Shown here piece after piece: positions 39,069-56,823 of a DNA stretch of 64,000 nucleotides (within the stretch, counting starts at the first letter, position 1; the number at the start of each line of letters is the position of its first letter). Below the pieces are notes generated by a model. It had not been told where the DNA came from, made no database searches, and saw only the letters and a program-made list of their open reading frames with translations. The stretch spans positions 2,372-66,371 of the forward strand of contig JACQAZ010000046.1 in assembly GCA_016194705.1 (NCBI GenBank), in the 5' to 3' direction. Position numbers and translations under genes: made by a program. Source of the DNA: Elusimicrobiota bacterium. Its GTDB lineage: Bacteria > Elusimicrobiota > Elusimicrobia > UBA1565 > UBA9628.

Positions 39069-39072
39069 AGAG

Positions 39073-39705
39073 CTAAGGTTTGTCGACACTGTAGAGCTGG
39101 TCCAGCAGCTTGCGTCTTTCGGCTTTCGCGCGCGCGATGTCGGAGACGGCCGACGACGGGAGGCTGTGCAGGATCATATCGCGGTCGTGGATGCCGCCCA
39201 GCAAGTCCTGTAGATTGCGGATCTGCCCGGGGGACTCGCCGGTGAAGGCCTCGATAAGGTCTCCCAGCCGCTTGATGGTCAGGCGCGCGGAGTGCAGTCC
39301 CTCGGAGTCGTTCTCGTCGCGCACGGTCCCCAAACGCTTCGATGCCTCGGAGGCTTGATCCAGGATGGCGCGCCTTATTTTTTCCGAGAGCTTCTTTCGC
39401 TCGGCGGCGGGAGCCGAGGCGACGGCCTCGAGCGCGGGCTTCAGGCGCGCCGCAATGCCCGTAAATTGCGTGTGCCAGCGCTTGAGCTCCATCGAGCGCT
39501 CAGGAGACTCGCCGCCTTCGCCCTTCGCCCCCCCGCCGAGCCATTTGTCCTTGACCTGCGCGTCGCGCCAGCGGCCGGCGGTCGAGAACATGCCATTGAG
39601 CGCGGAGCGTTCCGCCGGCGCGAGATCGAGCATCTCCAGCACGGTCAGCAGCTTGCGCAGGCTCGTGCGAAAAACGTGAAGGCCCGAGCTCTTGAGGTCC
39701 GCCAT
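39073..39705 (-). CDS. CHAD-domain (polyphosphate-binding) protein
   Basis: LHVFRTSLRKL, RDAQV, LHSARLTIKRL and LQDLLGGIHDRD match the two CHAD His/Arg motifs. Confidence 0.8.
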   Translation of the reverse strand: MADLKSSGLHVFRTSLRKLLTVLEMLDLAPAERSALNGMFSTAGRWRDAQVKDKWLGGGAKGEGGESPERSMELKRWHTQFTGIAARLKPALEAVASAPAAERKKLSEKIRRAILDQASEASKRLGTVRDENDSEGLHSARLTIKRLGDLIEAFTGESPGQIRNLQDLLGGIHDRDMILHSLPSSAVSDIARAKAERRKLLDQLYSVDKP

Positions 39706-39720
39706 GACGGCGGCCGCTTC

Positions 39721-40356
39721 CTAGGCGTCATTGAGGACGTGGACGGCGATGGAAGCCGCTCGCGCGACGTCCGGATCCTTGGCCGTCGCGCTCTCGGCCG
39801 AGCGCTCGACGCGCCGGGCCGCGCCCCCGAGGCCGAAAGCCGCCGGCATCAAAGGCGACTCCTCACGAACCTGCCGGGCCTGCCTCAAGCGCTCCTTGAC
39901 GCGCTCTCTGGTCGCCCGCACGTCGCCGGCGTCCGGGACGACGACCGAGACGGCGAGCAGATTCTTGAGCTCGCGCTTGCGCTGCTCGAGCTGACTGACC
40001 GCCGAGGCGGCCTTCTCAACGCCGCCCGCCACAAGTTCGCCGATGTCGAGGTCGGGTTTTGCGATCTCTTCGTCGATCCTGGTCCGCAGATGCTCCCGAA
40101 TCCAGTCCGCTTGGCCGGCGGCGTCCGTTTCCGGACGCTTCGCGAAGTCGGGCAGCGCGTCGAGACGGGCATCCAGCAGGCTCTGCAGGGACGGCTCGAG
40201 AGATTTGGGCAAGGCCAGCTCCGCAAGGACGGCCGGAGAGAGCGGATAATGCGCCTCGACCGCGATAGAAATCGGGCGCACGGTCTTCCCGGCGCCAGGA
40301 ATGTCCGCGGCTGCCGCCGCTCCGGTGACGACGAAAGCGAGGATCAGGGCTCTCAT
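39721..40356 (-). CDS. Hypothetical exported helical protein
   Basis: Signal peptide MRALILAFVVTGAAAA; ATG overlaps the stop of the upstream giant gene (ATGA). Confidence 0.7.
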   Translation of the reverse strand: MRALILAFVVTGAAAAADIPGAGKTVRPISIAVEAHYPLSPAVLAELALPKSLEPSLQSLLDARLDALPDFAKRPETDAAGQADWIREHLRTRIDEEIAKPDLDIGELVAGGVEKAASAVSQLEQRKRELKNLLAVSVVVPDAGDVRATRERVKERLRQARQVREESPLMPAAFGLGGAARRVERSAESATAKDPDVARAASIAVHVLNDA

Positions 40357-43300
40357 GGCTTCGACTTTCCTTTTTCCGCCGAGGTCGTGATGGGCCGCGC
40401 CTGCAGTATGGCGACGCGGTCACCTTGGATCGCGAACTCGATGTCGAGCGGAAAGCCGAAGTGAGCCTCGAGCGCCTTGGCGATGCGCGCGAGCCTTTGA
40501 GTCTGCTCGAGCGTCAGCGCGCGGCGCCGCCGCCGCGACCGCTGGATGCCCCGAATCTCGGTGCCGGCGCCGTCGGCGCGCGGCATGACCGCGATGCGCT
40601 TCTCTCCTATGAAAGGAAGCCTTGTCTCCTCTCCGTCCGACTTTCGCGCGATGTAGCGGTCGGTCTGCACGATGCCCGACACCACGCCCTCGCCAAGACC
40701 ATAGGCCGCGTTGATGACGATCTCGTCAGCGCCGCTCACCGGATTGCGCGTGAAGATCACCCCGGCCGCGTCGGCCTGCGCCATCTCTTGGATGAAGGTC
40801 GAGGGCAGAAGCTCGGTCGATTTGACGCCGTGGGCGTGGCGGTAGCTGATGCCGCGCGGCAGCCAGAAAGAGGCCCAATTCTCGACGACCATGGCCAGCG
40901 CATCCTCCGCCTTGACGTGGAGGTAGCTCTCGGCGGCTCCCGCGAAGGCGGCGTCGGCTTGGTCTTCCTGCACCGCGGACGAGCGCACGGCCAGGCGTTT
41001 TTGACCGTCGACGAGCCAATGATCCCGCATGCCCCGCCAAATCTCGGCGCCAAGGCCGCTCTCCCGGTTGAGCTTGCCCGATCTGATGAGTGCGCTGATT
41101 TTCTCCGAAAGCTCAGCCACTTTATTCTGGCGCTCCTCATCTCTTAACGCCTCGGATTGGACGCGGTCGAGTTCCTCGGCCAAGGCCCGGAGCTGGTCCT
41201 TAAGGCCGTTTTCTTCGAGGAACCTCAGCCAGCCCTGCGTCGTGACGGAGAGGGCCGAGGGGACGTAGGCGTCCAGCGAACGCACGACCGACAAGATCTC
41301 GCCGAGCTTTGCGAACTTGCCGCCCACGATCCCGGTGTCGCCCTCGGCGGCGGCGCCCAAAGGCAGAATATCCGGGACGATGGCGCGATGCGCCAGGCTG
41401 CGGACCGCGCGCTCGAAGTCGGACAGAACCTCGGTGCGCGGGGCGTCCTGCACCGCGGCGCGGGCGCGCTCGACGACGCCCTCCTGCATTCCCAAGATCC
41501 TCGCCAGCGCCTGCAGCCGCCGCAGTTCGGGCTCGCCGAGCTCGACGCGGCCGTCCTGCATGCGCTTGAGCTGGTCCACAAGCAGACGGCGGCCGTGGTC
41601 GCGCGCCTCCAGGCGCCGCGGAGCGTCCGTTTGGCGCAGCAGACTTGCCACCACCTTCGCGTCGGCATCGCGCCGGGGCCCGGGATTAAAAAGCGTCTCT
41701 TCGAGAGCGGCGGCAACGCCAGCCGAGGTCGTCGGCGGCGCCGCGCGCTTACCCTTCAAAGTCTCGTCGACATAGTCCAAAGCCGCGGCGGCGTCGGCTT
41801 CAACGTCGTCGAAGTGCGATAATTCTCCGGTCGCCCCATTGACGCGGATGAGCCCGCCTTCCTTCATGGTAAAGCGCCGCAGAGTCAGCTCGGGGGTCAG
41901 GCTGAGCCCCTTGCGCTCGACGGGCCTGGCGTTGGCCGCGTAGACGTCGAACTCGATATAGACGCGCCGCTCGCCGTCCTTGCGCCACCGCGCCGTCGGC
42001 AGTATGACGGAGGGAATACCCATCTCGCGAGTCGTGATGCCGGCATGGCTCAACAGGCCTCCCCCGGTCGTCACGACGGCCGCCGCTTGACCGATCGCGT
42101 TGATGTCGTCGGGCTCGGTGAACGGAACGATCAAGATGGCTCCGGGCTTGCCGGCTCTCTCAAAAGTGACTCGCGCCGTGACAAAGCCCCCCTCGCCGGC
42201 GGAGACCGCGAGCCCCGCCGCGCGCTGGCCCAAGTACGGCGAGGCGGCGGGCCGGGCCCGCAGCATCTGGTCGAGCAGCGCGGCCTGGGCGGCGCCGACG
42301 TCCTCGACCGTCGGGGCAGCAATTCCCTGACGCTCCAGGAATTGCGCGAGTGCCGCCGCCGTCAAGTCGCCGGAGAGCTCGGAATCAAAGGCCTGCGCGC
42401 GGGCGTAGCCGATGAAGCCCGTCTCGGGATCGCGCAGGACATAAAGGACCAGGGCTTTGCGCCCGAGGCGCAGGACCGCACGCTCCGCCCGCAGCGCGCC
42501 GACGGCGCCGATGGGCTCGTACGCGAGCTCGGGGTCGAGATGGCTCGCCATGGACGCCACGCGCCGCGCCTCGGCGGGATCGGCTAGCACGAAGTCGGCC
42601 AAGCTCTCCACGGGCCTATACTTCTGCGGCTCGGGAACTCCCTCCTCGCCCAGCGAGAGCTGGCCTATGATCACCGCCTTCTGCACGGCGTCCGTGAAAT
42701 GGCGCTTGATGACGGCCCGGCCAAAGCCAGCGGCCTCCGGGATCCGCGGCAGGCCGAGGCGCGAAAGTTCCGCATCCAACGCCTGAGTCAGGAGCCTGCG
42801 CTGCGCCGCCTGCTTCTTCTCGACGTAGGCGTCGTAGTGCTTGCCGAAACTCGCGTTGTCGTTCCGGTTCCATTCCTTGCTCGGCCAGCCGCCCTCGGCC
42901 ATGAAGAGATCGGCGTACCGGCGCATCGTTTCAAGACCTTCCGCGCCCTTGAATTTCTCGAGATACAGGTTTAGCTCCGAATCCTCGTGCAAAGTCTGGA
43001 TGACTTTAGGGAAAAGCTCGGCCAGCTGGGACTCGGAGCTGAGGCCGTGGTCCTTGTCCAGCACCGCGGTCAAGAACTGGTCGGCCTCCAGATCGTGCGA
43101 GACGCCCATGTCGCCGAGCTGCATCTCCAAGAGCGACATACGCTCGCGCTTGCCGCGGCCCGTCTCCCAATCTTCGTAGCGGATGCGCAGCATGCCCCCG
43201 TCGTCGGGTGCCGCGAACTTGACGTAGATTTCGGCGCTATGCTTGCCCAGCGTGGCGTGGCACCAAGCTTCATCCCCATTGACGATGATGCGATCCTGAT

Positions 43301-45845
43301 GTGCCGATTGTATATCGCCCAGTCGCGAAAGCAGCGACGCCAGCGGCGGGCTTTGCAGGCGGCCCTGCCGGATGAGCGAACCTTCCTGAAGGTTGGTGAA
43401 GGCGATCTGGTGGCCGCCGAAGGAAAGCCGGCCCGTGCCCTGGCCTTGGTCCTTCTTGGCCAGCAGAGTGAGGCTCATCTTGTGCATGTAGTTGACGAGG
43501 CTGTGGAGATGGCGCATGTCGGAGAGCCCCACGTTCTTCTCGAAGGAGCCGACCTGAGCCGCCAAGTCTTGGGGCAGAGGCTGTCCCTCGGGAAGCTGGA
43601 TCCAGGCCGTCTCCAAGGATGCCGCGATGGTCCTGTATTTCTCGGACACCGCCTCGCCGTCGGCGGCGTTGCCGCCGAGCGCCGCCAGCTCTTGGTAGCT
43701 CGCCACCATCTTGCCCATCTCGGCCACGATGACCTTGGCCCCGGACTTGGTCATGCCGCGCGCGTGGTTCATGAGCGGCAGCACCCGGAAGTTGGATTCG
43801 ATCAGCGCGTCGAAGACCCTAAACCGGCTTCGCAGGCTGTCCTTGCCTTGGTTGGGCTGAGTGTCGGGCCACAGATAAGCGGCTCCAAGCTGGGGCTTCT
43901 CGGCGTCGACAGCATTGCGCACACCCGGGACGCGGTAGGGTAATTGATAGAGGCCGCTCGAGACGGCATTTCTTGAACTTTCCTCATCGGCGGCGACCAA
44001 GAAGGGAACGCCGGCCAAATCCGCCGCCGCCGGGATCTCGGGTTTGCGGCCCGATCTCGCGGCGTGCTCGAGCGTCACGACGAATTCGTCGACGCTGTCC
44101 TTGTCCGCGAAAAACGACCTCTCGAAGCCCGCGGAGGTCATGGCGGCAAGATTTGGAACGTAGCGCTTCAAAGTCGCGATGTACTCGGGATAAAGCGAAG
44201 CGAGCAGCTTGTCGGCGGTGGGGAACCGCTGCGTGAGGATGTTGTCGAGCGACAGCTGCGACCGGTTCGCGCCGAGTGCCGCCAGCGTCTGCTCCAGGAA
44301 GTGCCGAACCCACGGGTCTGCGGCCTTGACGAGTAAGGCGTCGCGCCGCGCTTTCCATTTGGCGTCGTCGGTCCGGAACTCCTGCAGCGCCGCGTTGGCG
44401 GCGGCGACGGCGGCGACGACGGCCTTGCCGGACCGGGCCTTGCGGATGCCGCGCTCCATGGCGTCGAGCGCCTCGTTGTAGCGCTCAAGCGCGGGCATAG
44501 CTTCACCTGCGAGCGACCTGAGTTCGGGCACGAAAGCCTTAAGCGAACCCCCCTCGTCCTTCTCGAGGCGATCCAAGAGATGAGGGATGTCTGCCGAGGT
44601 GATATTGAACCTTGCGTCCGACAACGCGGAGAGCTCCGTCGGCTCCTCGGCCGCATGCTCCCGGCGTTGCGCGATGAACTCGCGGGTCAGTTCGGGATTA
44701 ATGAAGAGCGAGTTCTCATAGCCGGCGATGCCCACGTGGGACAGATTGGGGATCAGGCGCCGCAGTTCCTTGATCTCCTCGGGATACCGGGCGTCCAGCA
44801 GCGCCTCGGCGTTCGGGATGCGCCCTTGCAGCAAGGTCCCCACGTCGAGCGCGGCGACGTTCTTTTTGAGATCGGCGCCGTCCATGACCGCCTTCAAGAA
44901 GACCCGATCGCCGCCCTTCGCCTTGGCGTACAAAGCATCCCTCTTGGGCTTCCACGCGTTGCGCGCCGCAACGAACTCGTTCAGGGAGACCTTGGCCTCT
45001 TTCCAGAAGGATTGGAACTTTCCCTCCGCATGGTCGCGGATGGCGGCGTCGATCCGGCCTACGGCCTTCTCGACCTTCGCGGCCGGAAGCATGACGTCCA
45101 TGGCCAGGGAGTCCGCCTCCTCATGGTAGGCCTTCAACGGAGTGTTCCGGCCGGGCGTCGCGACGTAGAGCGAATCCCTTCCCGTGCGCTTCAAGCGATA
45201 GAGCGTCAGCTGTCCCGACTCGAAGAAGGAGCTAACGTCGCCTTTCATCGGCACCGGGTAGCCGGCGCGCGTCATGTAATAGATCTTTGCTCCAGATGCG
45301 ATCGCCTTCTTGAACGCGGCCGTGTGTTTTCCCAACGGCGTCAATCGGGTCTCGGCCGCGGAAGCGCCGGCCGCGGCGCCGTCGCCGAGCTCCGGTGAGG
45401 GTTTGGTCTTGCTCGCGCTGTCGAAGAACGCGCCGGCGTCGAAGAGGCCATTGGCCAGCGCCTCCTGGAGCTGGTCGGCGAATCGGACGACGCGGTCTGT
45501 TCCCGATGCCGCGCCGTCTGTCGCCTCAACGGCGTCCGCCCCGGGCTCCGTTCCCAGCGCGGCGGCAGGCCCGTCGATGATGATCGACTTGGTGTGCAGC
45601 ACCCCCGCCTCGGTCTTGACCTCCGGAGCCGGCGCCGGCGAACCCTCGAGCCCTGCGACCGGCTTCAGCGGATCGAGGCCCTTCACGTCGAGCTCGACGG
45701 CTGGGATCGGGCTTGCGTGCATCGCAGTCCCCGGCAGCGCGACGGCGGGGATATCCTTGCCCGCGCCCCGAAGGATCTCGCCGCCAAAGGAGGCGGTCGC
45801 CAGCAGCAAGAGCGCGGTGCCGACGGAGGGAAGCCGCATTCTCAT
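40353..45845 (-). CDS. Large exported dikinase-like protein, 1830 aa: 2 repeats, central domain, PEP-utiliser His domain, C-terminal PPDK/PPS-type ATP-grasp
   Basis: Signal peptide MRMRLPSVGTALLLLATASFG. His domain VVTTGGGLLSHAGITTREMG. ATP-grasp VGGKFAKLGEI, LAVRSSAVQED.ADAAFAGAAESYLHV, AYGLGEGVVSG and LDIEFA..ILQARPIT. ATG 45845 overlaps the upstream stop. Confidence 0.88.
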   Translation of the reverse strand: MRMRLPSVGTALLLLATASFGGEILRGAGKDIPAVALPGTAMHASPIPAVELDVKGLDPLKPVAGLEGSPAPAPEVKTEAGVLHTKSIIIDGPAAALGTEPGADAVEATDGAASGTDRVVRFADQLQEALANGLFDAGAFFDSASKTKPSPELGDGAAAGASAAETRLTPLGKHTAAFKKAIASGAKIYYMTRAGYPVPMKGDVSSFFESGQLTLYRLKRTGRDSLYVATPGRNTPLKAYHEEADSLAMDVMLPAAKVEKAVGRIDAAIRDHAEGKFQSFWKEAKVSLNEFVAARNAWKPKRDALYAKAKGGDRVFLKAVMDGADLKKNVAALDVGTLLQGRIPNAEALLDARYPEEIKELRRLIPNLSHVGIAGYENSLFINPELTREFIAQRREHAAEEPTELSALSDARFNITSADIPHLLDRLEKDEGGSLKAFVPELRSLAGEAMPALERYNEALDAMERGIRKARSGKAVVAAVAAANAALQEFRTDDAKWKARRDALLVKAADPWVRHFLEQTLAALGANRSQLSLDNILTQRFPTADKLLASLYPEYIATLKRYVPNLAAMTSAGFERSFFADKDSVDEFVVTLEHAARSGRKPEIPAAADLAGVPFLVAADEESSRNAVSSGLYQLPYRVPGVRNAVDAEKPQLGAAYLWPDTQPNQGKDSLRSRFRVFDALIESNFRVLPLMNHARGMTKSGAKVIVAEMGKMVASYQELAALGGNAADGEAVSEKYRTIAASLETAWIQLPEGQPLPQDLAAQVGSFEKNVGLSDMRHLHSLVNYMHKMSLTLLAKKDQGQGTGRLSFGGHQIAFTNLQEGSLIRQGRLQSPPLASLLSRLGDIQSAHQDRIIVNGDEAWCHATLGKHSAEIYVKFAAPDDGGMLRIRYEDWETGRGKRERMSLLEMQLGDMGVSHDLEADQFLTAVLDKDHGLSSESQLAELFPKVIQTLHEDSELNLYLEKFKGAEGLETMRRYADLFMAEGGWPSKEWNRNDNASFGKHYDAYVEKKQAAQRRLLTQALDAELSRLGLPRIPEAAGFGRAVIKRHFTDAVQKAVIIGQLSLGEEGVPEPQKYRPVESLADFVLADPAEARRVASMASHLDPELAYEPIGAVGALRAERAVLRLGRKALVLYVLRDPETGFIGYARAQAFDSELSGDLTAAALAQFLERQGIAAPTVEDVGAAQAALLDQMLRARPAASPYLGQRAAGLAVSAGEGGFVTARVTFERAGKPGAILIVPFTEPDDINAIGQAAAVVTTGGGLLSHAGITTREMGIPSVILPTARWRKDGERRVYIEFDVYAANARPVERKGLSLTPELTLRRFTMKEGGLIRVNGATGELSHFDDVEADAAAALDYVDETLKGKRAAPPTTSAGVAAALEETLFNPGPRRDADAKVVASLLRQTDAPRRLEARDHGRRLLVDQLKRMQDGRVELGEPELRRLQALARILGMQEGVVERARAAVQDAPRTEVLSDFERAVRSLAHRAIVPDILPLGAAAEGDTGIVGGKFAKLGEILSVVRSLDAYVPSALSVTTQGWLRFLEENGLKDQLRALAEELDRVQSEALRDEERQNKVAELSEKISALIRSGKLNRESGLGAEIWRGMRDHWLVDGQKRLAVRSSAVQEDQADAAFAGAAESYLHVKAEDALAMVVENWASFWLPRGISYRHAHGVKSTELLPSTFIQEMAQADAAGVIFTRNPVSGADEIVINAAYGLGEGVVSGIVQTDRYIARKSDGEETRLPFIGEKRIAVMPRADGAGTEIRGIQRSRRRRRALTLEQTQRLARIAKALEAHFGFPLDIEFAIQGDRVAILQARPITTSAEKGKSKP
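44070..45130 (-). repeat. Two copies of the same ~195-aa repeat in the 1830-aa paralog
   Basis: WKPKRDALY...RYPEEIKELRRLIPNL and WKARRDALL...LYPEYIATLKRYVPNL. Confidence 0.82.
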
Positions 45846-48800
45846 TTCTTGAGATTCCCCACGAGCGCGTCGAAGGTCGCTTCCATCTGGTCGGCCATGT
45901 CGAGGAAGGCATCGATCGTGCGGACATGGTCCAGGATGGGGCCCTCGCCGCCGCCGTACTCCTTCATCGTGAAGATCTTGCCCTTGGCGGAAGGATAACG
46001 GCGCTCTAGATATTCCTTCTGGTCCGGCGTCATCACTAGGATTACGCTGGCCCGTTTGACGTCCCGGATGGTGATGCCGCGGCCGGAGTGCGGCTCGACC
46101 GGGATGCCCTTGTGGCGCAGGACCTCGGCGGACAGATCGGCCATCGAACCCATGCCGCCATAGCGGGCGCGAGACCAAACGTCGACGTCCGTGATGCCCT
46201 CGCGCCGCAAACGGTCCTTGAAGAGGCGCTCGGCCAGCGGGCTGCGGCTATGATTGGCGTCGCACACGAAGAGCACGGCCTTCTTGGGGGTCGCCTCGGC
46301 CTGCGGGGCCGGAGGCGTGAAGTCCTTATTGATCGCGGCGCGCACGGCCTCCTTGATCTCGGTTCCCGCCTTGATGTAGCCGAAGCGCGGCGCGGTCTTC
46401 GAGGGGTTCTCGATCTCCGTCCCCCCGAGCCCGGCGAATTCATTCAGGAGAAAGACCTTGCCCTTGGCCTCCGGGAATTTCTTGAGAATGTTCTCGACGT
46501 GCTCCTTTTCCATGACGAGGATTACGTCGCTGTCGGCGACGTCCTGCGCGGTCATCGGCGTGGACTTGTGCGGGCGGCCGTCGATGCCGGCCTTCGCCAG
46601 GTTGTCTATCGCCTCGCTCTTCATCGGCGGGCTATAGGACGAGTAGCTCCCGCCGCCGGAGCCGAAGCCGAAGTAACTGCCGCTGCCGCCGCCGCCAAAG
46701 CCCACGCTGCGCGAGAAGACATGCACGTCCTTGACGCCGAGCTTCCCGAGCTCGTCCTTGGCGTAGTATTCCGCCATGGGGCTGCGGCTCGTGTTGAAGG
46801 AGCATGCGAACATGATGGACTTGATCTTCCTCTCCGCGGAAGCCGCCGCCTTCGCGACGACCTTCACCGCCGTCGTGATCTCTTTCGCCGTCTGCTCATA
46901 GGCGAGGAGGCGTCCGGCCGTGCTGCCGTAAGAGGGGTTCTCAATGTCTCCGGTCCCCAAACCGGCGAACTCCTTGAGGAGGAAGGTCTTGCCATCCGCC
47001 TCGGGGAACTGGCGAAGGATGTCGTCGAGGTTCTGCTCGTCCATGGCGAGCAGGACGTCGCTGCGCATCACGTCCTGCAGCGTCAGGCCCTTTGAGCGGT
47101 GAGCGCCCGCGTCGATGCCGTTGGCCTTAAGGTACGCCTTGGAGCCCTCCGACATCGCTTCCGACGAATAGTGCGACGATCCGCCAAAGCCGCCGTACGA
47201 GTCGTCGTCGTACGAGTAGTAAGAGCCGCTCTTGGCGCCGCGAGAGAAGACCTCGACATCGGTCTTGCCGTCCTTAGCGAGCATGTCCTTGGCGAGGTGC
47301 TCGGCCATCGCGCTGCGGCAGGCGCCGCCTGAGCAGACGAAGGTTACGCGCTTCTTGCGCGGCCCCGTTTTCGGCTCGGGCTCCGCCTCGGCCGAGGCCT
47401 TGTCGATGACGGCCCTGACGGCCTCCTTGATTTCCTTGCCGGCCGTGGAATAGGCGCGGAAGATCTTCTTGGAAGGATTCTCGATCTCTCCGTAGCCGGT
47501 CTTGGCGAACTGCTTCAGCAGGAAAGCCTTGTCCCGAGCCTGCGGGAAGCGCGACTTTATGTCGCCGATGTTGTCGTCGTCCATCACGAGGATGACGTCG
47601 GCGTCCTTGGCTTCCTGCTTCGTCAACGGCGTGGACTTGTGCCCGCTCCCGTCGATCTCCAGGGTCTCCAGGAGCTTCTGGGCCGTCCAGTTCATGGGCT
47701 TGCCGACGCGGGCCTTCGCGTAGAGGCTGCGCGAGACGACCTTGACGTTCTTGATGCCCAGGCGCTTGAGCTCCTCCTTGGCGAAGTACTCCGCCATGGG
47801 GCTTCGGCTCGTGTTGAAGGAGCACGCGAAGACGATGGACTTGAGCTTGCGCTCGCCGCTCTGGACCTGGCGCGCGACCGCGTCGACCGCGGCCACGATT
47901 TCCGCTGCCGTCTCTTCGTAGGCCCGCCCGATGGCCGGCCACGGGTTCTCGACGTCGCCAGTGCCGGTCTGGGCGAACTCCTTCAACAGGTGCGTCTTGC
48001 CGCCGGCCTCGGGGAACTTCCTCAGGATGTCGTCGACGTTGCTCTGGTCCATGGCGAGGACGTAGTCGGCGTTGCGCACGTCTTCGATCTTGAGCTTGTA
48101 GGAGCGATGGGGGCGGCCGTCGATGCCGGCCAGCTCCAGCTGATACATGGAGTCCGGGGACATATAGCCGCCGTCGCGGGCGTGGACGCCGCGGGAGAAG
48201 ACCTCGACGGCCGCGTTGCCCTCCTTGGCGAGCATGTCCTTGGCGAAGAACTCCGCCATCGGGCTGCGGCAGGCGTTGCCGGTGCAGACGAAGACGATCT
48301 TCTTCTTGGCCGGAGCGGCGGGCTGCGCCGCCGGAGCCTCCACCGGGGGGACCTTCACGACGAGAGGCTTGTCCTGTGAGGCCGGAGCCGCCTTGACCTC
48401 GCCGCGCGTCGTGACGGGCCGAGCCTGGAGGATCGCGATGCGGTCGCCCTTGACGGCGAACTCGATGTCGAGCGCATAGCCGAAGTGCTCCTCGAGCGCC
48501 TTGGCGATGAGCGCGAGGCGCTGCGTCTGTTCCGGGGTCAGCGCGCGCCGCTTGCGGCGCTCCGCGGCCACGCCCTGCAGTTCGGTGCCCGACGCCCCGG
48601 ACTTGGGCATGACGGCGACGCGCTTGTCGCCGATGAAGGGGAGCTTGGTCTCCTGCCCGTCCGACTTGCGCGCCACGTAGCGGTCGGTCTGGACGATCCC
48701 CGACACGATCCCCTCGCCGAGGCCGTAGGCGGCGTTGATGACGAACTCGTCGGCGCCGGTGACGGGGTTCTGGGTGAAGAGGACGCCCGCGACGTCGGCC

Positions 48801-51800
48801 TCCGCCATCTCCTGGATGATCGTCGACGCCGCGAGGCTCGTCGAGGGGATCTTCTGCTGGTGGCGGTAGACGATGCCGCGCGGCAGCCAGAAGGAGGTCC
48901 AGTTCTCGATGACCTTGTGCAGCGCCTCCTCGGGCCTGACGTGGAGGTAGGACTCGGCGGCTCCCGCGAAGGCGGCGTCGGCCGTGTCCTCTTGGACGGC
49001 GGAGGAGCGGATGGCGAGCTGCTTGCCGTCCGCCGCGAGGCCGCGGGCCTGCATCCCCTCCCAGATCTCCTGGCCGACGCCGGATTTGGCATCGAGCTTG
49101 CCGGAGAGAAGCAAAGTGCGGATCTGTTTGGAGATCTCGGCGACTTTCTCCTGCCGGGCCGCCTCGGATTGAGCGCTCGAGAGGACCGCGTCCAATTGTT
49201 CGGCCAAAACGCGCAGCGGCCTTTCGAGGCCGTTCTCCCTCAGGAAGCGCCGGTAGGCCTCGGTGGTGACGGCCAGCGCCTCGGGCACGTAGCCGCCCGC
49301 CTTGCGCACGACGGCCAGGATCTCGCCCAGCTTGGAAAGCTTGCCGCCCACCAATATGCGGTAATCGTCATCGACGACTCCCAGAGGAAGAACGGAAGGC
49401 GCCATGCCCTTGATGCCGCCTTGCTTCTCCTCGGTCAGCCTCTTCTCGAGATTCTGGAACAGCCCCAAAGTAGATTTCGCATAGACCTTGTCGGCGACGG
49501 CGCGGTTCTGCAGCAGGCGCACCAGCCGGCGCACGGCGGGCAGGTCCTCCGTCGTGGGTTTCGTCGAGTTCAGGCGCACGACCTCCGGGCGCGCGGCGAT
49601 GAGCGCCGCCTCCTCGCGATTGGCGAGCGCCGCGCGCAGCCGCTCCTCAGCGGCCTTAAGGGGAGCCAAGGCGTCCGTCTTCTGGTCGAAGAGCGCCGCC
49701 ATATCCTCGAGTTGCTTGATTTCCGCGTGAAAAGCGGCGATCGACGCGGCGCCGGCCTCGGTCTCGGCGGGGACATTGGACTTGACTGTCGTGAGACGAT
49801 CCTCGAAGAGGCGCCTTCCGTGGTCGCGAGCCTGCTGCCGGATGTCCTCACGCCTGTGGGTCAGCAGCCTCAACAGGATGGCGCCCGCCGACGCGCGCTT
49901 GGATGGATTGAACAGGGCCTCCTCCACGGCGAAGGCCACGGCTCCGGCCTTGCGGGATTCCGACTCCTTCGGGAAGACGTACATCTCGCCGGTCGCGCCG
50001 TTGACGCGGACGAGGTCTCTTTCGTGAAGCGTGAGGCGCACCGCGCGCAGGCGGGGTCTGACGACCGCCCCGTCCACGTGGACGGCCTCGCCCTCGGGCT
50101 CGTACGTCGTCAGCTCGAGCTCGTCCTTGCCCTCGCCTGTCTTCTTCCACTCGGCGCGCGGCAGGATGACGGAGGCCAGGCCCAGCTCGCGCGTCGTGAT
50201 GGCGGCATGGCTCAACAGCCCGCCGCCCGTCGTCACCACGGCCGCCGCGTTCTTGATCGCGCCGATGTCGTCGGGCGTGGTGTAGGGCACGATGAGGGCG
50301 GCGCCCGGCTTGCCTTTGCGGTCGAAGGTCACCGAGGCCGTGACGAGCCCGCCCCGGCCGGCGGAGGCCGCCAGGCCGTCCACGCGAGTGCCGGAGAGCG
50401 GCGAGCGCGAAGGATTTCCCAGCTGCCACACCTTCAGCAGAGCCTTCTGGGCGCCGGTCAACGCCTCAGGTGCGGGAGCCTTGACGCCCCGTTCGTTCAG
50501 GAAGGAGATCAAGCCCTCGGCGTCGAGCGGCGTGAGCCCCGCGGCGGGGTCGTGGCGGAAAGCGGCGGTGTAGCCCAGCGTGCCGGTCTCCGGCTCGCGC
50601 AAGCCGTAGAGGACCAAGGCCTGATCGCCGAACTGCCAGATGGCGCGCTCAGTGCGCATCGCGCCGACGGCGCCGATCGGCTCGTACTCGAGCTCCGACT
50701 CAAAGTGGCCGATGACGGAGGCGACGGCCTCGGCGGCGTCGCGGCTTCCGTGGACGTAGGCCGCCAGGGCCTCGACGGGACGGTAGTCCTGCCGTTGCGG
50801 GATGCCTGCGTCGTCCCATTTGAGCTCGCCGCGGATCAAGGCCCGATTGACGGCGGCGGTGAAGTGCTTCTCGACCGCGGCCTGGCCCATCACGGCGTCT
50901 TCGGGGATCGTCGGGAGGCCCAGTCGAGTCAGCTCCTTGTCCAAAGTCTTGCGCATGGTCTCGCGCGTCTTGTTCCGCCCCATGTATTCCTTATAGATGT
51001 CGTGGTAATTCCCGCCCTTGTTCCAACCCTCGGCCCAGCGCCCCTCAGCCATATAGATGTCGGCCAGCTGCGGGACGACCTTCGCGCAGCCGTCCTCGCC
51101 GAGGTTGTTGAATGCGCAGTTCATGTCCAGCGTGTCGTGCAGCCCCTGCAAAGTGAAGGAGAAGAGCCTCTCGAGCTGCTTCTCGGAGGAGAGGCCGTGG
51201 TCCTTGTCGATGATCGAGACCAGGTGCAGGGGATCTTTCCCATGGGTGGCGATGGGCTTGCCCGTTTTCGGATCCCGAGGTCTCGTGTCCTCGACCTCAG
51301 TGTGGATCCCCAGGCGCATGTGCTCCTCTCTGACCAAGGCCAGGCGCGCCGGGTTGCCGACGGGAGTGTTGGTCCCTTCTTGATAGCGTATGCGCAGCAT
51401 GCCGCCGTCGTCGGGGTCGGCGAACTTGACGTAGATCTCGGCGCTGTGCAGGCCCAGGTGCGCGTGCACCCAAGCCTCGTCGCCGCGGATGATCACCGTG
51501 TCGGTCTGGTGGCCGCCGGGGCGCTTGTCCCGGTTGAGCAGTGCGCGCAGCGGCTTGCTCAGGAGATGGTTGTTCTTGGACAAGGGTTCGTCGCCCAGGT
51601 CCATGAACGGGATCTCGTTGTTGAAATTGATCGCGCCTCTCTCGTTGCCCGCCGCCTCCTGGGCGCTGAGCGCCTCGAAGCTGCTCTGGTGGATGAAATT
51701 GACCATCGTATGCAGGTTCTTGACCGCGGCAAGCTCCGCGCCCGGCTCGATGCTGCTGATCCGCTGCGCGACCGCTTCGGGCAGAGTCCCGGTCTCGGGC

Positions 51801-54800
51801 ACGTCCTTCCAGAGCTGCTCGAGCTCAGCGACGATCGCTGCATATCTCTGGCGCACCGCCTCGCCGTCGGCGGCCTTTTGGGCGCTCTTGGTCAGCGTCT
51901 CGTAGTGGCTCACCATCGTCCCCACCTCGGCGACGATGGCGCGCCCGGCGGCCTTGGGCATCGGCTCGGAGGAGAACCTGCTGATGATGGGCAGCACGCG
52001 GAAGTTGGTTTCGATCAGCTCCGAGAAGATGCCGAAGCGCTCCTTGAGCTTCTCTTTCGCCGCTCCGGGCGTCGCGTCGGGCCGGAAGGTCGCGTAGCCG
52101 GGGTTGTTCGGGTCAGCGAAATCCTCGAGATCCTTGGCGCCCGTGACGCGGTAGGGCAGGCGGAAGTCGCCGCTCTTGAACTTGGGCTTGAGCTTGTCGC
52201 CTCCCATGGGAACGACGAAGCGCACGTCCGAGAGCCCTTTGGATTGAGGCTGCGGGACCGATTCTCCCAAGAGGGAGCGGTTCGCGATGAAGTCGCCGAC
52301 CTTGTCCCGGTCCACGAAGATGGACCTCTCGAAGCCGTCGATCTTCATCGCCGACAACCCGGGCATGAAGCGGCGCAGCTCCTCGATGCGCTGGGGATGC
52401 AGCCAAGCCAGTAGCTCGTCGGCGTTGTGGAAACGGGCCGCCATCATCGTGTTCAAGGAGACCGGATTAGGATCGAGCGGCGTGAGCATCTGGGTCAGGA
52501 AGGAACTCAGGACGGGGTCGCCGACCTGGCCGAGGAGCGCGTCCCGCTTTTGCCGCCACCCGGAGGAGTCGGCCTGCCGCGCCGCGGTCATGCGGCTCAG
52601 CTCCTCGATGATCACGGCGGCCTTCCGGCTGCCTCCCTTGCCGGCGACGGCGCGCTGGAGCCTCTCGACGGCCCGGTCCCATTGCGCCAGGGCGGGCATG
52701 GCCTCGGTGACTACGCCCTGCAGCTGCGCCTCGTAAGGCTTCAAGACGCCGTCCTCGTGCTTCTCGAGCCGGCTCAACATCGCCGGAATCGATTTCGGCG
52801 AGACCTCGAATTTCGCGTAGGACAGGGCCCCGATCGCCGCGAGCGCCTTCTTATCCAGCGACTTCCTGTTCTTGATGAACTCGTCGGTAAGCTCCGGGTG
52901 GAGGAAGATGGATCCTTGAAAGTCGGAGACCCCGATGGATTTGAGATCGGGAATGTAGAGGCGCAGCTCCGCGATGCGTTTCGGGTAGAGCCAGGACAGC
53001 AGCTCGTCGGCGGTCCGGAACTTTGTGGCGATCAGCGAATTGAGATCGCCGCGCTGGGGATCGATCGCCGAAGCGACGTAGGCGACAAAGTTGCGGATCT
53101 GGGCGTCGGTGACCTTGCCGAGCAAGGCATCCCGACGCGCCTGCCAGCCGGAGGCCCCGTTCTGCCGCTCCGCGATCATGCGGCGCAGCTCGTCCAAGGA
53201 CTTCGCCGCGGCCTTGCCCGACTTGTCTTCGCCGAAGGCCGTCTGCAGGAGATCGAGGGTCTTTTCCCATTGCGCGATGACGGGCAGCGACTCCTTGGCC
53301 AGCTCGCTCAGCTCGGGCTCGATCGATTTCAACGGACCCTTATCCTTCGCAAGACGCTCCAACAGCCCAGGCATGTCCTTCGGCGTGAAGGCAAAGGCGG
53401 CGCGCGAAAGTCCGCGGAGGTTCTGACGAGCCGCCTCCCCGCGGCTGCGTTGATTCTCCAAGAACTCCAGAGTCAGCCCGCGGTCGACGAACATGGAGGT
53501 CTCGAAGTCCGTGACGGGGAGGCTCTTGAGATTGGGGATGTCGGTCCGCAGCTCCTCGATGTGGTCGGGATAAAGGGCGGAAAGCAGGTCGTCGGCGGTG
53601 GGGAAGCGTTCCGTCAGCAAGGCGCCCACGGTGATGCTCTTCTTGTGGAGCTTCTTGAAGTCGGCGCCGTCGATGAGCGCGGCGAGGAAGAGCTTGTCTG
53701 CATCCTTCGCGTTAGCATAGAAAGCGTCTCTCTTGGGCTTCCACGCTTCCCGCTCGGTCGCGTACGCCCCCAACACGGCGGTGGTTTCCCTGAGCGCCAC
53801 GCGGAGGTCCTTTTCGGAGTCGGCTCCCCGGATCACGGCGTCGAGCTTGTCCACGGCCTGCTTCGCCTTATCGGTCTGGGCGAGGGCCTCGAGGACGAGA
53901 GCGCGAGCCTCGGGGACCAGGGGCTGCAGCGACGGCTTCTGAAACGCTGCGAGCCGCTCCAGGGCCGCCGGGATCGCCTCCAGCGAGAAGGCGATCTGGG
54001 CCTGGGAGAGCGCCCCGATGGCCGGGACATCGCGGTTTCGCGTGGATTTTCGGTACCTGAGATACTCCAACGTCAGGTCCGGGTCGTTGAAGATCGACTT
54101 TTCCAGGTCGCCGATGCCGAGGCTCTTCAAGTTGGGGATGTAGCGGCGCAAGTCCCTGATGTACTCGGGATACAGCGCGGCCATCAGCGCGTCGGCGTCG
54201 GCGAATCGTTCCTGGACCAGCGCCTGGAAGGACAAGTCGGTATGGCTCTTCCCGAAATCGGCGCCCTCGACGACGGCCTTGAGGAAGGCGACGTCCGCCT
54301 CCTTCGCCTTCCCGTAGAGATCGTTCTTCTTGGCGGTCCACGTCTCCTGCGCAGTCCTGTATTCGGCCAGCTCGCGTTGAAGCTCCTTCAGGTTCTCGGA
54401 GAACTCCTTGGTCGCGCCGCGCGCGCGGGCCGGACGCCCGAGCCGGTCCAAGACCCTCTGCAGGCGCGCGCCTCGAGCCAAGGCGTCCGAGGCCAGCGCC
54501 CCCAGGTCCGCCTCGTAATTCTTCAACGAGCTCCGCCCGCTCGGCGCCACGACGTAGATCGCTCCCGTCCCCTTCGACTTAGTCTTGTACAGCGTCAAGC
54601 GCGCCGGCTGGAGGTAGCCGGCCACATCACCGTTGACCGGCACGAGCGTGCCGTTGGGCGCCTGATAGTAGATGCGATTTTTGATCTTGTCCTTGGCCTT
54701 CAGTATGCCGCGGCCGTAGCCGGGCGCGTACCTGCGCAGCTCGGTGAACTCGACAGGCGTTGGGTCCAGCCCATCCGCGACGTCCACCGTACCCGAGGGC

Positions 54801-55285
54801 CTGCGAACATGGTCGAAAATGACGCTGCCTTCGAAACGCCCCCGCGCCGGCGCCTTCTCGGCCTTGCCGGCCGCCGGGGCCTCGCCCTCCGCCGCGGCGG
54901 GGGCCGCCCCGTCTGCGGGGACCGTCGGCTCCGGCAACGCCATGACCGAGGGGGACGTCGGCGCCGCAAAGGCGGGGTCGTTGGCTGCTTCCTTTATAAC
55001 GCCGACTGCCGTGTCGGCGGCCGCCGTGGGGATCGCATCTCCCACCGAGATGCTGGTGAGGGCGGGCACTTCCTTTGTCAAGGACTCAATCGACTTGTTC
55101 GCGCCCGTACGGACTTCGGGGAGGCGGAGGGTCGCGATCTCCTTGGGAGCCGCGAAATCAGCGGCGACGGCGCGGGTTGCCTCCGGGCCCATCATTGAAA
55201 CGAGAAGCGACGCGATCAGAAGAGCCGAGAGAAAAGATTTGGCGGATGCGCAAACATCGCGCAACGAAGCCCCTGTCGACTTCAT
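45842..55285 (-). CDS. Giant exported protein, 3147 aa: 4 repeats, central domain, His swivel domain, ATP-grasp, five LMW-PTP domains
   Basis: Signal peptide; VVTTGGGLLSHAAITTRELG; VGGKLSKLGEI; LAIRSSAVQED; LDIEFAVKGDRIAILQARPVT. P-loops CTGNACRS, CSFNTSRS, CSGGACRS, CSFNTSRS and CDANHSRS. SD GGAGG and TATACT upstream. Confidence 0.9.
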   Translation of the reverse strand: MKSTGASLRDVCASAKSFLSALLIASLLVSMMGPEATRAVAADFAAPKEIATLRLPEVRTGANKSIESLTKEVPALTSISVGDAIPTAAADTAVGVIKEAANDPAFAAPTSPSVMALPEPTVPADGAAPAAAEGEAPAAGKAEKAPARGRFEGSVIFDHVRRPSGTVDVADGLDPTPVEFTELRRYAPGYGRGILKAKDKIKNRIYYQAPNGTLVPVNGDVAGYLQPARLTLYKTKSKGTGAIYVVAPSGRSSLKNYEADLGALASDALARGARLQRVLDRLGRPARARGATKEFSENLKELQRELAEYRTAQETWTAKKNDLYGKAKEADVAFLKAVVEGADFGKSHTDLSFQALVQERFADADALMAALYPEYIRDLRRYIPNLKSLGIGDLEKSIFNDPDLTLEYLRYRKSTRNRDVPAIGALSQAQIAFSLEAIPAALERLAAFQKPSLQPLVPEARALVLEALAQTDKAKQAVDKLDAVIRGADSEKDLRVALRETTAVLGAYATEREAWKPKRDAFYANAKDADKLFLAALIDGADFKKLHKKSITVGALLTERFPTADDLLSALYPDHIEELRTDIPNLKSLPVTDFETSMFVDRGLTLEFLENQRSRGEAARQNLRGLSRAAFAFTPKDMPGLLERLAKDKGPLKSIEPELSELAKESLPVIAQWEKTLDLLQTAFGEDKSGKAAAKSLDELRRMIAERQNGASGWQARRDALLGKVTDAQIRNFVAYVASAIDPQRGDLNSLIATKFRTADELLSWLYPKRIAELRLYIPDLKSIGVSDFQGSIFLHPELTDEFIKNRKSLDKKALAAIGALSYAKFEVSPKSIPAMLSRLEKHEDGVLKPYEAQLQGVVTEAMPALAQWDRAVERLQRAVAGKGGSRKAAVIIEELSRMTAARQADSSGWRQKRDALLGQVGDPVLSSFLTQMLTPLDPNPVSLNTMMAARFHNADELLAWLHPQRIEELRRFMPGLSAMKIDGFERSIFVDRDKVGDFIANRSLLGESVPQPQSKGLSDVRFVVPMGGDKLKPKFKSGDFRLPYRVTGAKDLEDFADPNNPGYATFRPDATPGAAKEKLKERFGIFSELIETNFRVLPIISRFSSEPMPKAAGRAIVAEVGTMVSHYETLTKSAQKAADGEAVRQRYAAIVAELEQLWKDVPETGTLPEAVAQRISSIEPGAELAAVKNLHTMVNFIHQSSFEALSAQEAAGNERGAINFNNEIPFMDLGDEPLSKNNHLLSKPLRALLNRDKRPGGHQTDTVIIRGDEAWVHAHLGLHSAEIYVKFADPDDGGMLRIRYQEGTNTPVGNPARLALVREEHMRLGIHTEVEDTRPRDPKTGKPIATHGKDPLHLVSIIDKDHGLSSEKQLERLFSFTLQGLHDTLDMNCAFNNLGEDGCAKVVPQLADIYMAEGRWAEGWNKGGNYHDIYKEYMGRNKTRETMRKTLDKELTRLGLPTIPEDAVMGQAAVEKHFTAAVNRALIRGELKWDDAGIPQRQDYRPVEALAAYVHGSRDAAEAVASVIGHFESELEYEPIGAVGAMRTERAIWQFGDQALVLYGLREPETGTLGYTAAFRHDPAAGLTPLDAEGLISFLNERGVKAPAPEALTGAQKALLKVWQLGNPSRSPLSGTRVDGLAASAGRGGLVTASVTFDRKGKPGAALIVPYTTPDDIGAIKNAAAVVTTGGGLLSHAAITTRELGLASVILPRAEWKKTGEGKDELELTTYEPEGEAVHVDGAVVRPRLRAVRLTLHERDLVRVNGATGEMYVFPKESESRKAGAVAFAVEEALFNPSKRASAGAILLRLLTHRREDIRQQARDHGRRLFEDRLTTVKSNVPAETEAGAASIAAFHAEIKQLEDMAALFDQKTDALAPLKAAEERLRAALANREEAALIAARPEVVRLNSTKPTTEDLPAVRRLVRLLQNRAVADKVYAKSTLGLFQNLEKRLTEEKQGGIKGMAPSVLPLGVVDDDYRILVGGKLSKLGEILAVVRKAGGYVPEALAVTTEAYRRFLRENGLERPLRVLAEQLDAVLSSAQSEAARQEKVAEISKQIRTLLLSGKLDAKSGVGQEIWEGMQARGLAADGKQLAIRSSAVQEDTADAAFAGAAESYLHVRPEEALHKVIENWTSFWLPRGIVYRHQQKIPSTSLAASTIIQEMAEADVAGVLFTQNPVTGADEFVINAAYGLGEGIVSGIVQTDRYVARKSDGQETKLPFIGDKRVAVMPKSGASGTELQGVAAERRKRRALTPEQTQRLALIAKALEEHFGYALDIEFAVKGDRIAILQARPVTTRGEVKAAPASQDKPLVVKVPPVEAPAAQPAAPAKKKIVFVCTGNACRSPMAEFFAKDMLAKEGNAAVEVFSRGVHARDGGYMSPDSMYQLELAGIDGRPHRSYKLKIEDVRNADYVLAMDQSNVDDILRKFPEAGGKTHLLKEFAQTGTGDVENPWPAIGRAYEETAAEIVAAVDAVARQVQSGERKLKSIVFACSFNTSRSPMAEYFAKEELKRLGIKNVKVVSRSLYAKARVGKPMNWTAQKLLETLEIDGSGHKSTPLTKQEAKDADVILVMDDDNIGDIKSRFPQARDKAFLLKQFAKTGYGEIENPSKKIFRAYSTAGKEIKEAVRAVIDKASAEAEPEPKTGPRKKRVTFVCSGGACRSAMAEHLAKDMLAKDGKTDVEVFSRGAKSGSYYSYDDDSYGGFGGSSHYSSEAMSEGSKAYLKANGIDAGAHRSKGLTLQDVMRSDVLLAMDEQNLDDILRQFPEADGKTFLLKEFAGLGTGDIENPSYGSTAGRLLAYEQTAKEITTAVKVVAKAAASAERKIKSIMFACSFNTSRSPMAEYYAKDELGKLGVKDVHVFSRSVGFGGGGSGSYFGFGSGGGSYSSYSPPMKSEAIDNLAKAGIDGRPHKSTPMTAQDVADSDVILVMEKEHVENILKKFPEAKGKVFLLNEFAGLGGTEIENPSKTAPRFGYIKAGTEIKEAVRAAINKDFTPPAPQAEATPKKAVLFVCDANHSRSPLAERLFKDRLRREGITDVDVWSRARYGGMGSMADLSAEVLRHKGIPVEPHSGRGITIRDVKRASVILVMTPDQKEYLERRYPSAKGKIFTMKEYGGGEGPILDHVRTIDAFLDMADQMEATFDALVGNLKK
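45845..48310 (-). repeat. Five tandem LMW-PTP domains (A-B-A-B-C) within the 3147-aa protein
   Basis: Domains 1 and 3 share AE..AKDMLAK.G...VEVFSRG; domains 2 and 4 share SI.FACSFNTSRSPMAEY.AK.EL..LG, with near-identical DNA at about 46775-46810 and 47795-47830. Confidence 0.88.
52280..54520 (-). repeat. Four ~195-aa helical repeats of unknown family
   Basis: Recurrent W..KRDA...F..AD.LL..LYP..I.ELR..IP.L......F..S+F motif at roughly 590-600 nt spacing. Confidence 0.85.
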
Positions 55286-55463: not shown

Positions 55464-55484
55464 CTCTCAGACGTTTTCAATTTT

Positions 55485-55574
55485 GGAAGGGTGCGTGAGC
55501 GGTTGAAACGGCACGACTGGAAATCGTGTAGAGGTGAAAGCCTCTCGAGGGTTCAAATCCCTCCCCTTCCGCCA
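55485..55574 (+). tRNA. tRNA-Ser (GGA), 90 nt, long variable arm, encoded CCA
   Basis: Acceptor GGAAGGG/CCCTTCC; anticodon arm CACGA-CTGGAAA-TCGTG; variable arm AGAGG-TGAAAG-CCTCT; T arm GAGGG-TTCAAAT-CCCTC; 3' GCCA. Confidence 0.97.
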
Positions 55575-55583
55575 GCTTTGCCA

Positions 55584-55612: not shown

Positions 55613-55652
55613 CTCGCCTGGACTCGATCAGCGGCGTTACTAAGGAGGCGGC

Positions 55653-56819: not shown

Positions 56820-56823
56820 GTCC

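Follow-up and report, generated by a model that had tools for sequence, protein, structure and literature searches.

The stretch of DNA analysed here, called the window, comprises 64,000 nucleotides of contig JACQAZ010000046.1 from an Elusimicrobiota bacterium (assembly GCA_016194705.1). Its minus strand carries two giant paralogous genes, referred to as A and B, whose products combine a phospho-histidine (His) domain with an ATP-grasp domain, as do phosphoenolpyruvate (PEP) synthase (PPS), pyruvate phosphate dikinase (PPDK), rifampicin phosphotransferase (RPH) and glucan-water dikinase (GWD). Gene A (45845..55285, minus strand) has a GGAGG about 9 nt 5' of its ATG and encodes 3147 amino acids (aa), arranged as a predicted signal peptide, an N-terminal beta domain with four helical repeats, a domain named cen in this work, the His domain, a linker, the ATP-grasp domain and five LMWPc phosphatase domains. 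Gene B (40356..45845, minus strand) encodes a paralog of 1830 aa which consists of a predicted signal peptide, a beta domain with two helical repeats, cen, the His domain, a linker and the ATP-grasp domain, and is devoid of LMWPc. The stop codon of A overlaps the ATG of B as ATGA (45842-45845), and the stop codon of B shares a 4-nt overlap (40353-40356) with the start of the next gene (39721-40356), which encodes 211 aa with a signal peptide and gave no match in a Pfam search. Both of these 4-nt stop/start overlaps suggest that A, B and the 211-aa gene form a translationally coupled operon.

The sole match among the GTDB genomes was an Elusimicrobia metagenome-assembled genome (MAG), JAHFCE010000008, which has a counterpart of the whole pair. 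For A, 83% identity is found over residues 505-3147, the N-terminal part of the orthologue being missing from the fetched locus (L001), and for B the identity is 76%. The presence of these orthologues implies that A and B are real genes. A and B share only 42.6% identity over about 1650 aa while each has an orthologue of its own, and hence their duplication is older than the split between the window and the MAG. Two plus-strand open reading frames (ORFs) opposite A (48485..52414 and 52427..55198) are taken to be antisense shadows in DNA of 65-68% GC, because all the domain and homologue matches sit in the minus frame.

The swivelling phospho-His domain (PF00391) of A covers aa 1638-1762 (50000..50374, minus strand) with the motif TTGGGLLSHAAITTRELG, and that of B covers aa 1174-1334 (41844..42326, minus strand). 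The PEP-utilizers matches in Pfam lie at aa 1659-1713 of A (E 4e-11) and aa 1233-1281 of B (E 2e-12). The GGGLLSHA motif is found once in each protein, and the codon of the catalytic residue is CAT at 50207-50209 for His1693 of A and CAT at 42045-42047 for His1267 of B, exactly where the initial annotation, which was made from the sequence alone, had placed them. In the PDB, both Foldseek and the profile search connected the domain with the phosphoryl carriers of PPDK, PPS, RPH, pyruvate kinase and enzyme I. The motif TTGGGLLSHAAITTRELG resembles that of PPS but has a Leu (GGLLSH, two residues before the His) at the position of the regulatory Thr, which precedes the catalytic His by two residues in PPS and PPDK (PMC12167813).

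In A, a linker of about 200 aa (aa 1763-1964; 49394..49999, minus strand), judged from its sequence to be helical, leads from the His domain to an ATP-grasp domain (PPDK_N) of the PPS/RPH type at aa 1965-2310 (48356..49393, minus strand), and the corresponding domain of B occupies aa 1493-1830 (40356..41369, minus strand). The Pfam PPDK_N model (PF01326) matches aa 1978-2304 of A (nt 48374-49354, E 1e-69) and aa 1506-1827 of B (nt 40365-41330, E 6e-69). Thus the phospho-His domain precedes the ATP-grasp domain in both paralogs, as had been noted, with Pfam E-values far beyond chance. For the catalytic residues, we considered the columns of charged/polar catalytic type with a conservation of 85% or more over the ATP-grasp domains of PPS, RPH-like proteins, PPDK and GWD. 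All such columns are intact, with the spacing of PPDK, in A (K1982, R2136, Q2158, E2191, D2273, E2275, Q2287 and R2289) as well as in B (K1510, R1664, Q1686, E1719, D1801, E1803, Q1815 and R1817). In the numbering of C. symbiosum PPDK, the set K22, D321, E323, Q335 and R337 is kept in A and B at the same spacing. With these residues retained and the His motif unbroken, it is reasonable to infer a His-mediated dikinase reaction for A and B.

The two proteins were also said to lack a pyruvate-binding barrel, and every approach agrees on this. No match to PEP-utilizers_C (PF02896) was found in A or B with Pfam or NCBIfam, the profile-profile comparison of the pre-His region with PPS/PPDK barrels by hhalign gave a probability of 0.3%, and the structural modelling which the initial annotation had proposed, applied here to the pre-His region, produced an AlphaFold model without a (beta/alpha)8 barrel, for which Foldseek found no barrel in the PDB and aligned the His domain only. 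Hence the explanation that A and B are ordinary PEP synthase or PPDK enzymes with a barrel too divergent to detect is effectively refuted. The top NCBIfam matches are indeed PEP synthase models, but they extend only over the ATP-grasp domain and reach 254 bits against a cut-off of 598. In addition to the negative searches and the AlphaFold secondary structure, B ends 3 residues past its PPDK_N match, a Leu stands in the place of the regulatory Thr (PMC12167813), and both proteins are giant, with predicted signal peptides.

The homologues of A and B were collected by an exhaustive HMMER search with residues 631-1830 of B, the segments of A were mapped onto the matches, and representatives were taken from clusters of 50% identity. 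Word-index searches with the His and ATP-grasp region or with cen had returned only ordinary PPS, RPH and PPDK, or nothing. The exhaustive search yielded 67 representative clusters with cen, one of whose representatives (P0037) is identical to B, and the family proteins range from 1300 to 7462 aa. An exact look-up of B in the contig collection gave no record. All the source-named members are from Elusimicrobiota, with annotations that include 'PEP/pyruvate-binding domain-containing protein'. The order of cen, His and ATP-grasp was observed in all 54 complete representatives and in all 25 complete proteins encoded at 37 metagenome loci and in the MAG, and some giant members contain this module twice. 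Two proteins, P0072 and P0074, gave the appearance of permuted members (ATP-grasp, cen, His), but this was rejected since both are partial proteins filling their contigs; the gene of P0074 has a TTG start, and its frame is open back to where the contig begins and has no stop codon on the other side. As giants with two modules are common, P0072 and P0074 most likely represent fragments, each reaching from one module into the next. The arrangement of cen, His and ATP-grasp is therefore a fixed trait of the family rather than a plastic one.

The cen domain covers aa 1069-1624 of A (50414..52081, minus strand), where it has about 560 residues with a mixed alpha/beta composition, and aa 605-1173 of B (42327..44033, minus strand). 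An alignment of 14 sequences, which are 25-53% identical to A, has 30 invariant columns. These include N1094, F1095, H1199, H1280, D1292, G1294, G1295, Y1301, R1314, D1360, K1361 and D1362 of A, several of which belong to the motifs HSAE (H1280), PDDGG (D1292-G-G) and DKDHG (D1360-K-D); the same motifs begin at residues 869, 880 and 930 of B. The AlphaFold2 model built from this alignment (pLDDT 81, pTM 0.77) consists of a helical bundle, a region of beta-sheet, further helices and a second sheet, with about 16 strands plus helices, and only about 15 residues separate cen from the His domain. None of the 14 members had a Pfam family over cen at E<=5, and the profile search of the PDB gave no sequence match. 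Foldseek against the PDB aligned only the His domain and nothing of cen, in a library which may predate the GWD structure 9HA9. Likewise, hhalign gave 0.4% against the middle domain of RPH-like proteins and 0.3% against the pre-His region of GWD, the latter with a profile of only 2 GWD sequences. Since the Pfam, PDB, Foldseek and hhalign comparisons were all negative, cen is a novel domain as far as Pfam, the PDB and the compared profiles reach. Its invariant His, Asp, Lys and Arg motifs look catalytic rather than structural, and cen is put forward as a putative acceptor domain or second active site.

A large domain followed by the His domain and a C-terminal ATP-grasp domain is also the layout of GWD, and the initial annotation had on this ground described A and B as bacterial GWD-like dikinases. 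The potato enzyme StGWD1 consists of two CBM45 domains, an all-alpha central domain (20 helices, PDB 9HA9), the His domain (H992) and the ATP-binding domain (PMC13553574), and this order has been stressed as unlike that of PPDK and RPH (PMC13553574). The likeness in layout stands, and so do the absence of a barrel and the assignment to this class of chemistry, for which the intact residues speak. Kinship to GWD, on the other hand, is not supported by the comparisons of the ATP-grasp domain, the His domain and cen. The His and ATP-grasp region of potato GWD was used as bait only; it matched real plant GWDs at 83% identity, and nearly all its matches that were long enough to include the His region carried PF01326 together with PF22973 (GWD1_pHisD). 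PF22973 is recognized in the plant protein P0188 at E 4e-51 and in the Gemmataceae-labelled P0253 at E 6e-38. The His regions of A and B gave no PF22973 match even at E<=10 and showed PF00391 only. Similarly, phmmer searches with the His domain of A retrieved PPS, PPDK and RPH-like proteins (E 1e-3 to 1e-10), with no GWD among the matches, and the His profile of the family compared with other profiles scored 99.6% for PPS/PPDK, 99.3% for RPH-like proteins and 11.6% for GWD.

The ATP-grasp domain points in the same direction. The identity of the A and B domains is 48% to the family, 33% to PPS, 32% to RPH-like proteins, 24-26% to GWD and 22% to PPDK. A phylogeny of the ATP-grasp and His domains had been suggested for placing the family, and the neighbour-joining tree constructed here from the ATP-grasp domain went against the proposed kinship, with GWD forming a clade in 100 of 100 bootstraps, the family in 79 of 100, and the family together with GWD in 0 of 100; this is a distance method in which GWD has a long branch and from which phosphoglucan-water dikinase (PWD) sequences were left out. 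The family ATP-grasp profile scored 659 for a group of multi-His proteins, 508 for RPH-like proteins, 357 for PPS, 204 for GWD and 173 for PPDK, and the GWD ATP-grasp profile is no nearer to the family than to RPH-like proteins. The multi-His group (P0110, P0121, P0125 and about 45 others) comprises proteins of 1000-1800 aa with an N-terminal ATP-grasp domain followed by two or three PEP-utilizers-like His domains. Finally, the domain preceding His is of mixed alpha/beta type in the cen model versus all-alpha in GWD. The likeness of A and B to GWD is thus one of topology only, and because the split dikinases of phenolic compounds have the same order, the shared topology is not a sign of GWD ancestry. 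We therefore read the A/B family, with moderate confidence, as an undescribed, sizeable and distinct branch of the swivelling-His dikinases that is PPS/RPH-like and lies outside the GWD family.

Four proteins retrieved with the GWD bait (P0250, P0253, P0268 and P0276) are 47-50% identical to it and carry PF22973 and PF01326; they are labelled as proteins from Planctomycetes, Gemmataceae and Nitrospirales MAGs, and all of them are partial, on short contigs, with labels as the only indication of their origin. We regard it as highly improbable that A and B correspond to GWD by homology or function and phosphorylate a glucan or another polysaccharide, with the fused phosphatases in the role of SEX4. 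This proposal draws on the shared layout without a barrel (PMC13553574), on the short loop between the preceding domain and the His domain in both (PMC13553574), on the pairing of a kinase with a phosphatase and on the giant size, as would be expected of enzymes acting on polymers. It is opposed by the ATP-grasp identities (24-26% versus 32-33% to PPS and RPH-like proteins), by the bootstraps, by a GWD profile score that is the second lowest of the five groups, by PF00391 in the place of PF22973, and by the alpha/beta cen versus the all-alpha central domain. Moreover, since sequences with PF22973 carry Planctomycetes, Gemmataceae and Nitrospirales labels, the role of GWD in bacteria is apparently already filled by a different family. 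The P-loops of the LMWPc domains here are of the YwlE type, and we know of no LMWPc enzymes that act as glucan phosphatases.

Nor was a glucan-binding module found in the N-terminal region. In A this region extends over about aa 150-1010 (52256..54838, minus strand), where a small beta domain precedes four helical repeats, each of about 175 aa, and this type of beta and repeat region is confined to the closest relatives. The AlphaFold model of aa 121-640 of B (pLDDT 79) similarly shows a small beta domain and helical repeats, with no fold match in the PDB. Pfam found no match in the N-terminal 1600 aa of A or 1200 aa of B, and in particular no CBM45 or CBM20. A carbohydrate-binding module was thus considered for this region and rejected, in the absence of a Pfam match for A and B and of a PDB fold match for the B model.

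The five LMWPc domains of A lie in tandem at aa 2325-3147 (45845..48313, minus strand; six stretches matched by Pfam, E 3e-103), and their best relative in the PDB is the arginine phosphatase YwlE (4pic, E 1e-21). Their P-loops are CTGNACRS, CSFNTSRS, CSGGACRS, CSFNTSRS and CDANHSRS in domains 1 to 5, so that C-X5-R-S/T is present in all five. In the alignment to 4pic, domains 1-4 have an Asn for the general-acid Asp (ENP, not DP). Domain 5 has LDH. ENP is also found in the closest orthologues (P0041 and domain 1 of P0040), while most other family members keep DP. The domains with ENP may be impaired phosphatases, substrate traps or phospho-carriers. Across the family, LMWPc occurs in 20 of 56 complete representatives and at 10 of 25 loci, in the linker between His and ATP-grasp in 12 representatives and past the ATP-grasp in 6. 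The fusion to CX5R phosphatases, which had been pointed out, is hence a recurrent one, and its recurrence supports a functional link between the kinase and the phosphatase.

The P-loops give an indication of the substrate. In YwlE and DARP, a Thr at P-loop position 5 determines the specificity for phospho-arginine (PMC7772506). This Thr is present in 19 of the 28 intact P-loops of the family, including domains 2 and 4 of A, with Ala in domains 1 and 3 and His in domain 5, and the commonest P-loop of the family, CTGNTCRS, is that of YwlE. Most likely, these recurrent YwlE-like domains undo or control a phosphorylation, and their substrate would be a phosphoramidate, a phosphoprotein or the phospho-His of the enzyme itself. 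Because the LMWPc P-loops are mostly YwlE-like, of the phospho-arginine type, the acceptor is less likely to be a glucan, and we lean towards a protein or a component of the cell envelope.

The chemistry of LMWPc enzymes runs through a Cys~P intermediate, which leads to a different idea of these domains as Cys~P carriers, similar to the cellobiose-type enzyme IIB of the phosphotransferase system (PTS), that take the phosphate from His~P in an ATP-driven, PTS-like relay. A weak Pfam match to PTS_IIB (PF02302, E 4.5e-7) inside the LMWPc region of A, the position of LMWPc in the linker beside the swivel His in 12 representatives, the tandem of five domains in A, and the Asn in domains 1-4, which should slow the hydrolysis of Cys~P, would all fit such a relay. 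Yet in most LMWPc domains of the family both the DP general acid and the full YwlE-like P-loop are preserved, as in ordinary hydrolases, and the conserved cen would be left without a role. In addition, B and many relatives have no LMWPc, which places these domains outside the core mechanism. A relay of this kind is consequently considered unlikely.

For the reading as a separate branch of dikinases, a swivel mechanism in which cen provides the acceptor site is considered the most probable. The C-terminal ATP-grasp domain would bind ATP and load the phosphate onto His1693 of A or His1267 of B on the PF00391 swivel, as in PPS, PPDK, RPH and GWD. The His domain, tethered by a short loop to cen and by the linker of about 200 aa to the ATP-grasp domain, could then swing to cen, where the invariants (HSAE, PDDGG, RY and DKDHG) would constitute the second active site, at which the beta-phosphate passes to the acceptor, with AMP and Pi being released. 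Published work describes how the swivel operates and how the domains of GWD, PPDK and RPH are ordered (PMC13553574; PMC4844700).

Alternatively, the His might be the only site of phosphorylation. VadK of M. tuberculosis, a protein derived from PPDK, autophosphorylates on His and regulates partner enzymes (PMC13400623), and with this precedent A and B could be regulatory autokinases that signal by protein contacts, cen and the repeats serving as sensor or scaffold. The long helical repeats and the tandem paralogs would suit a scaffold or complex, and no acceptor can be named at present. However, cen has invariant His, Asp, Lys and Arg that look catalytic, the domain occupies the site of an acceptor domain beside the swivel His, as in GWD and HpeH (PMC13553574; PMC12167813), and the recurrent phosphatase domains imply a phosphorylated product. 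A purely regulatory function is accordingly given little credence here.

Export is suggested by the N-termini of both proteins. That of A (aa 1-41; 55163..55285, minus strand) resembles a Sec-type signal peptide, with a K/R-rich start, the hydrophobic stretch FLSALLIASLLVSMM (hydrophobicity score 2.6) and then AVA|A, and a signal-peptide-like N-terminus is encoded at 45783-45845 (minus strand) in B; the B orthologue of the MAG has a Sec-like signal peptide too. By a crude test of hydrophobicity, signal-like N-termini were found in 25 of 52 complete family members versus 3 of 86 PPS/RPH-like controls. The hydrophobic segments of several giant relatives can be read as a signal peptide plus apparent membrane segments, even in number, ahead of the module. 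The family could therefore be an exported machine, periplasmic or on the surface, for the phosphorylation and dephosphorylation of proteins, possibly on arginine or otherwise N-linked, as the YwlE-type fusions would suggest, or of an envelope component; we offer this only as a speculation of low probability.

Several aspects weigh against the reading of the family as a distinct branch of dikinases with the proposed function. GWD sits on a long branch and the tree is by neighbour-joining only, so that the two layouts might yet go back to a distant shared ancestor. For A and B, the reaction is putative, as are its donor and its acceptor. Four of the five LMWPc domains of A are without the general-acid Asp, and a simple phosphatase activity of these four is hence doubtful. 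The predicted signal peptides of A, B and about half of the family would carry a module that depends on ATP out of the cytoplasm, to a place where no ATP is to be expected, so that an exported ATP-grasp enzyme would be surprising.

Some further observations concern the relatives. In the giants (P0054, P0057, P0067 and others, of 2700-7462 aa), Pfam recognizes PPDK_N, PEP-utilizers and LMWPc and no domain besides, and thousands of residues per protein are without annotation. In Omnitrophota, too, PPDK_N ranks with the 20 domains that giant proteins contain most often (bioRxiv 10.1101/2023.11.21.568195). Tandem arrays of paralogs are common, L003 and L004 having three genes each and contig Ga0172379_10000535 (L006 and L007) at least five, and within the arrays some genes have LMWPc and some do not; this suggests hetero-oligomers or a division of labour. 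The closer relatives have no conserved neighbours other than their own paralogs, and the context shared by distant relatives is housekeeping synteny only (YchF, RibF, trigger factor, ClpP and ClpX). The B orthologues (L001, 13313-14125; L002; P0038, aa 1789-2039) have a conserved tail of about 250 aa past the ATP-grasp domain, which is absent from the B of the window and carries an H-x-x-R-x-x-x-K stretch reminiscent of CHAD. A relationship of this tail to CHAD is unsupported (hhalign 0.3%).

Downstream of the A-B pair in the window lie a gene for a CHAD-domain protein (39073-39705, minus strand), a domain linked to polyphosphate granules, and a gene (37773-39089, minus strand) whose product begins with a hydrophobic stretch resembling a signal peptide and contains two ParBc_2 (PF08857) domains. 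Neither the CHAD nor the ParBc_2 gene is conserved beside the pair in the related MAG. Another ORF of 673 aa (35607-37628, minus strand) has SBP_bac_3 (solute-binding) and Lig_chan (ligand-gated ion channel) domains and looks like a glutamate-receptor-type channel of prokaryotes. Upstream of A, a divergent gene (55653-56819, plus strand) encodes an SPFH/Band-7 protein with C-terminal double zinc ribbons, followed by a gene for a TPR protein (56824-57612, plus strand). An ORF of 468 aa (55467-56873, minus strand) is probably not a gene, as it has no Pfam match and lies opposite the SPFH gene.

The family has several implications. Domain order alone does not make a GWD, and a tempting misannotation is thereby corrected; sequences labelled from bacterial bins that possess real GWD-type domains look different from the A/B family. 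The acceptors known for His-swivel dikinases are few (pyruvate, rifampin, phenols, prodiginine precursors and starch), and the family is a further, sizeable branch of these dikinases. LMWPc domains, tandem paralogs and frequent signal peptides suggest a reversible phosphorylation of proteins or the envelope and not a metabolic enzyme, and identification of the acceptor would extend the phosphorylation chemistries or targets known from bacteria. If the exported reading were true, the family would represent a new class of protein kinases unrelated to McsB, Hanks and BY-kinases, and the first bacterial extracytoplasmic ATP-grasp kinase, raising the question of the source of its phosphoryl donor.

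Among the named known systems, the RPH-like dikinases, including the split HpeHI, CreHI and PpsAB, are the closest in their ATP-grasp domain by identity, tree and profile score. They share with A and B the PF00391 swivel His, a dedicated substrate domain beside the His, and the absence of a TIM barrel and of the regulatory Thr. In the split dikinases HpeHI, CreHI and PpsAB (phenylphosphate synthase), a subunit with the substrate domain and His is followed by an ATP-grasp subunit (PMC12167813), and this gene order is the layout of A and B (cen, His, ATP-grasp). RPH itself differs in having the order ATP-grasp, substrate domain, His. Furthermore, neither the RIF-binding nor the HpeH-type domain is related to cen (hhalign 0.4%, no Foldseek match); Foldseek aligned only the His domain to 5fbs and 5hv1, and PF27448, the substrate domain of RPH-like relatives, is absent from A, B and the family relatives by Pfam. 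The A/B proteins are also 2 to 4 times larger than the RPH-like ones, with signal-like N-termini, helical repeats, LMWPc fusions and tandem paralogs.

The plant dikinases GWD1, GWD2 and PWD are likewise large proteins with a large non-barrel domain, a short loop, His and a C-terminal ATP-grasp domain (PMC13553574), and they transfer the beta-phosphate via His, which is presumed for A and B. However, their His domain is PF22973 rather than PF00391, no CBM45 or CBM20 was found in A and B, the linker between His and ATP-grasp has about 20 aa in StGWD1 versus about 200 aa in A and B, and the partner phosphatases are SEX4 or LSF2 of the dual-specificity phosphatase (DSP) fold versus LMWPc in the A/B family. 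PEP synthase and PPDK have homologous ATP-grasp and swivel His domains, but in the order ATP-grasp, His, barrel, whereas A and B are without the barrel and the regulatory Thr. Lastly, YwlE, with the fold of low-molecular-weight protein tyrosine phosphatases (LMW-PTP), is the nearest PDB match of the LMWPc domains of A and has the CTGNTCRS P-loop of the family; unlike YwlE, the LMWPc domains of the A/B family form part of a dikinase polypeptide, with as many as five in a row, and are not accompanied by an arginine kinase of the McsB type.

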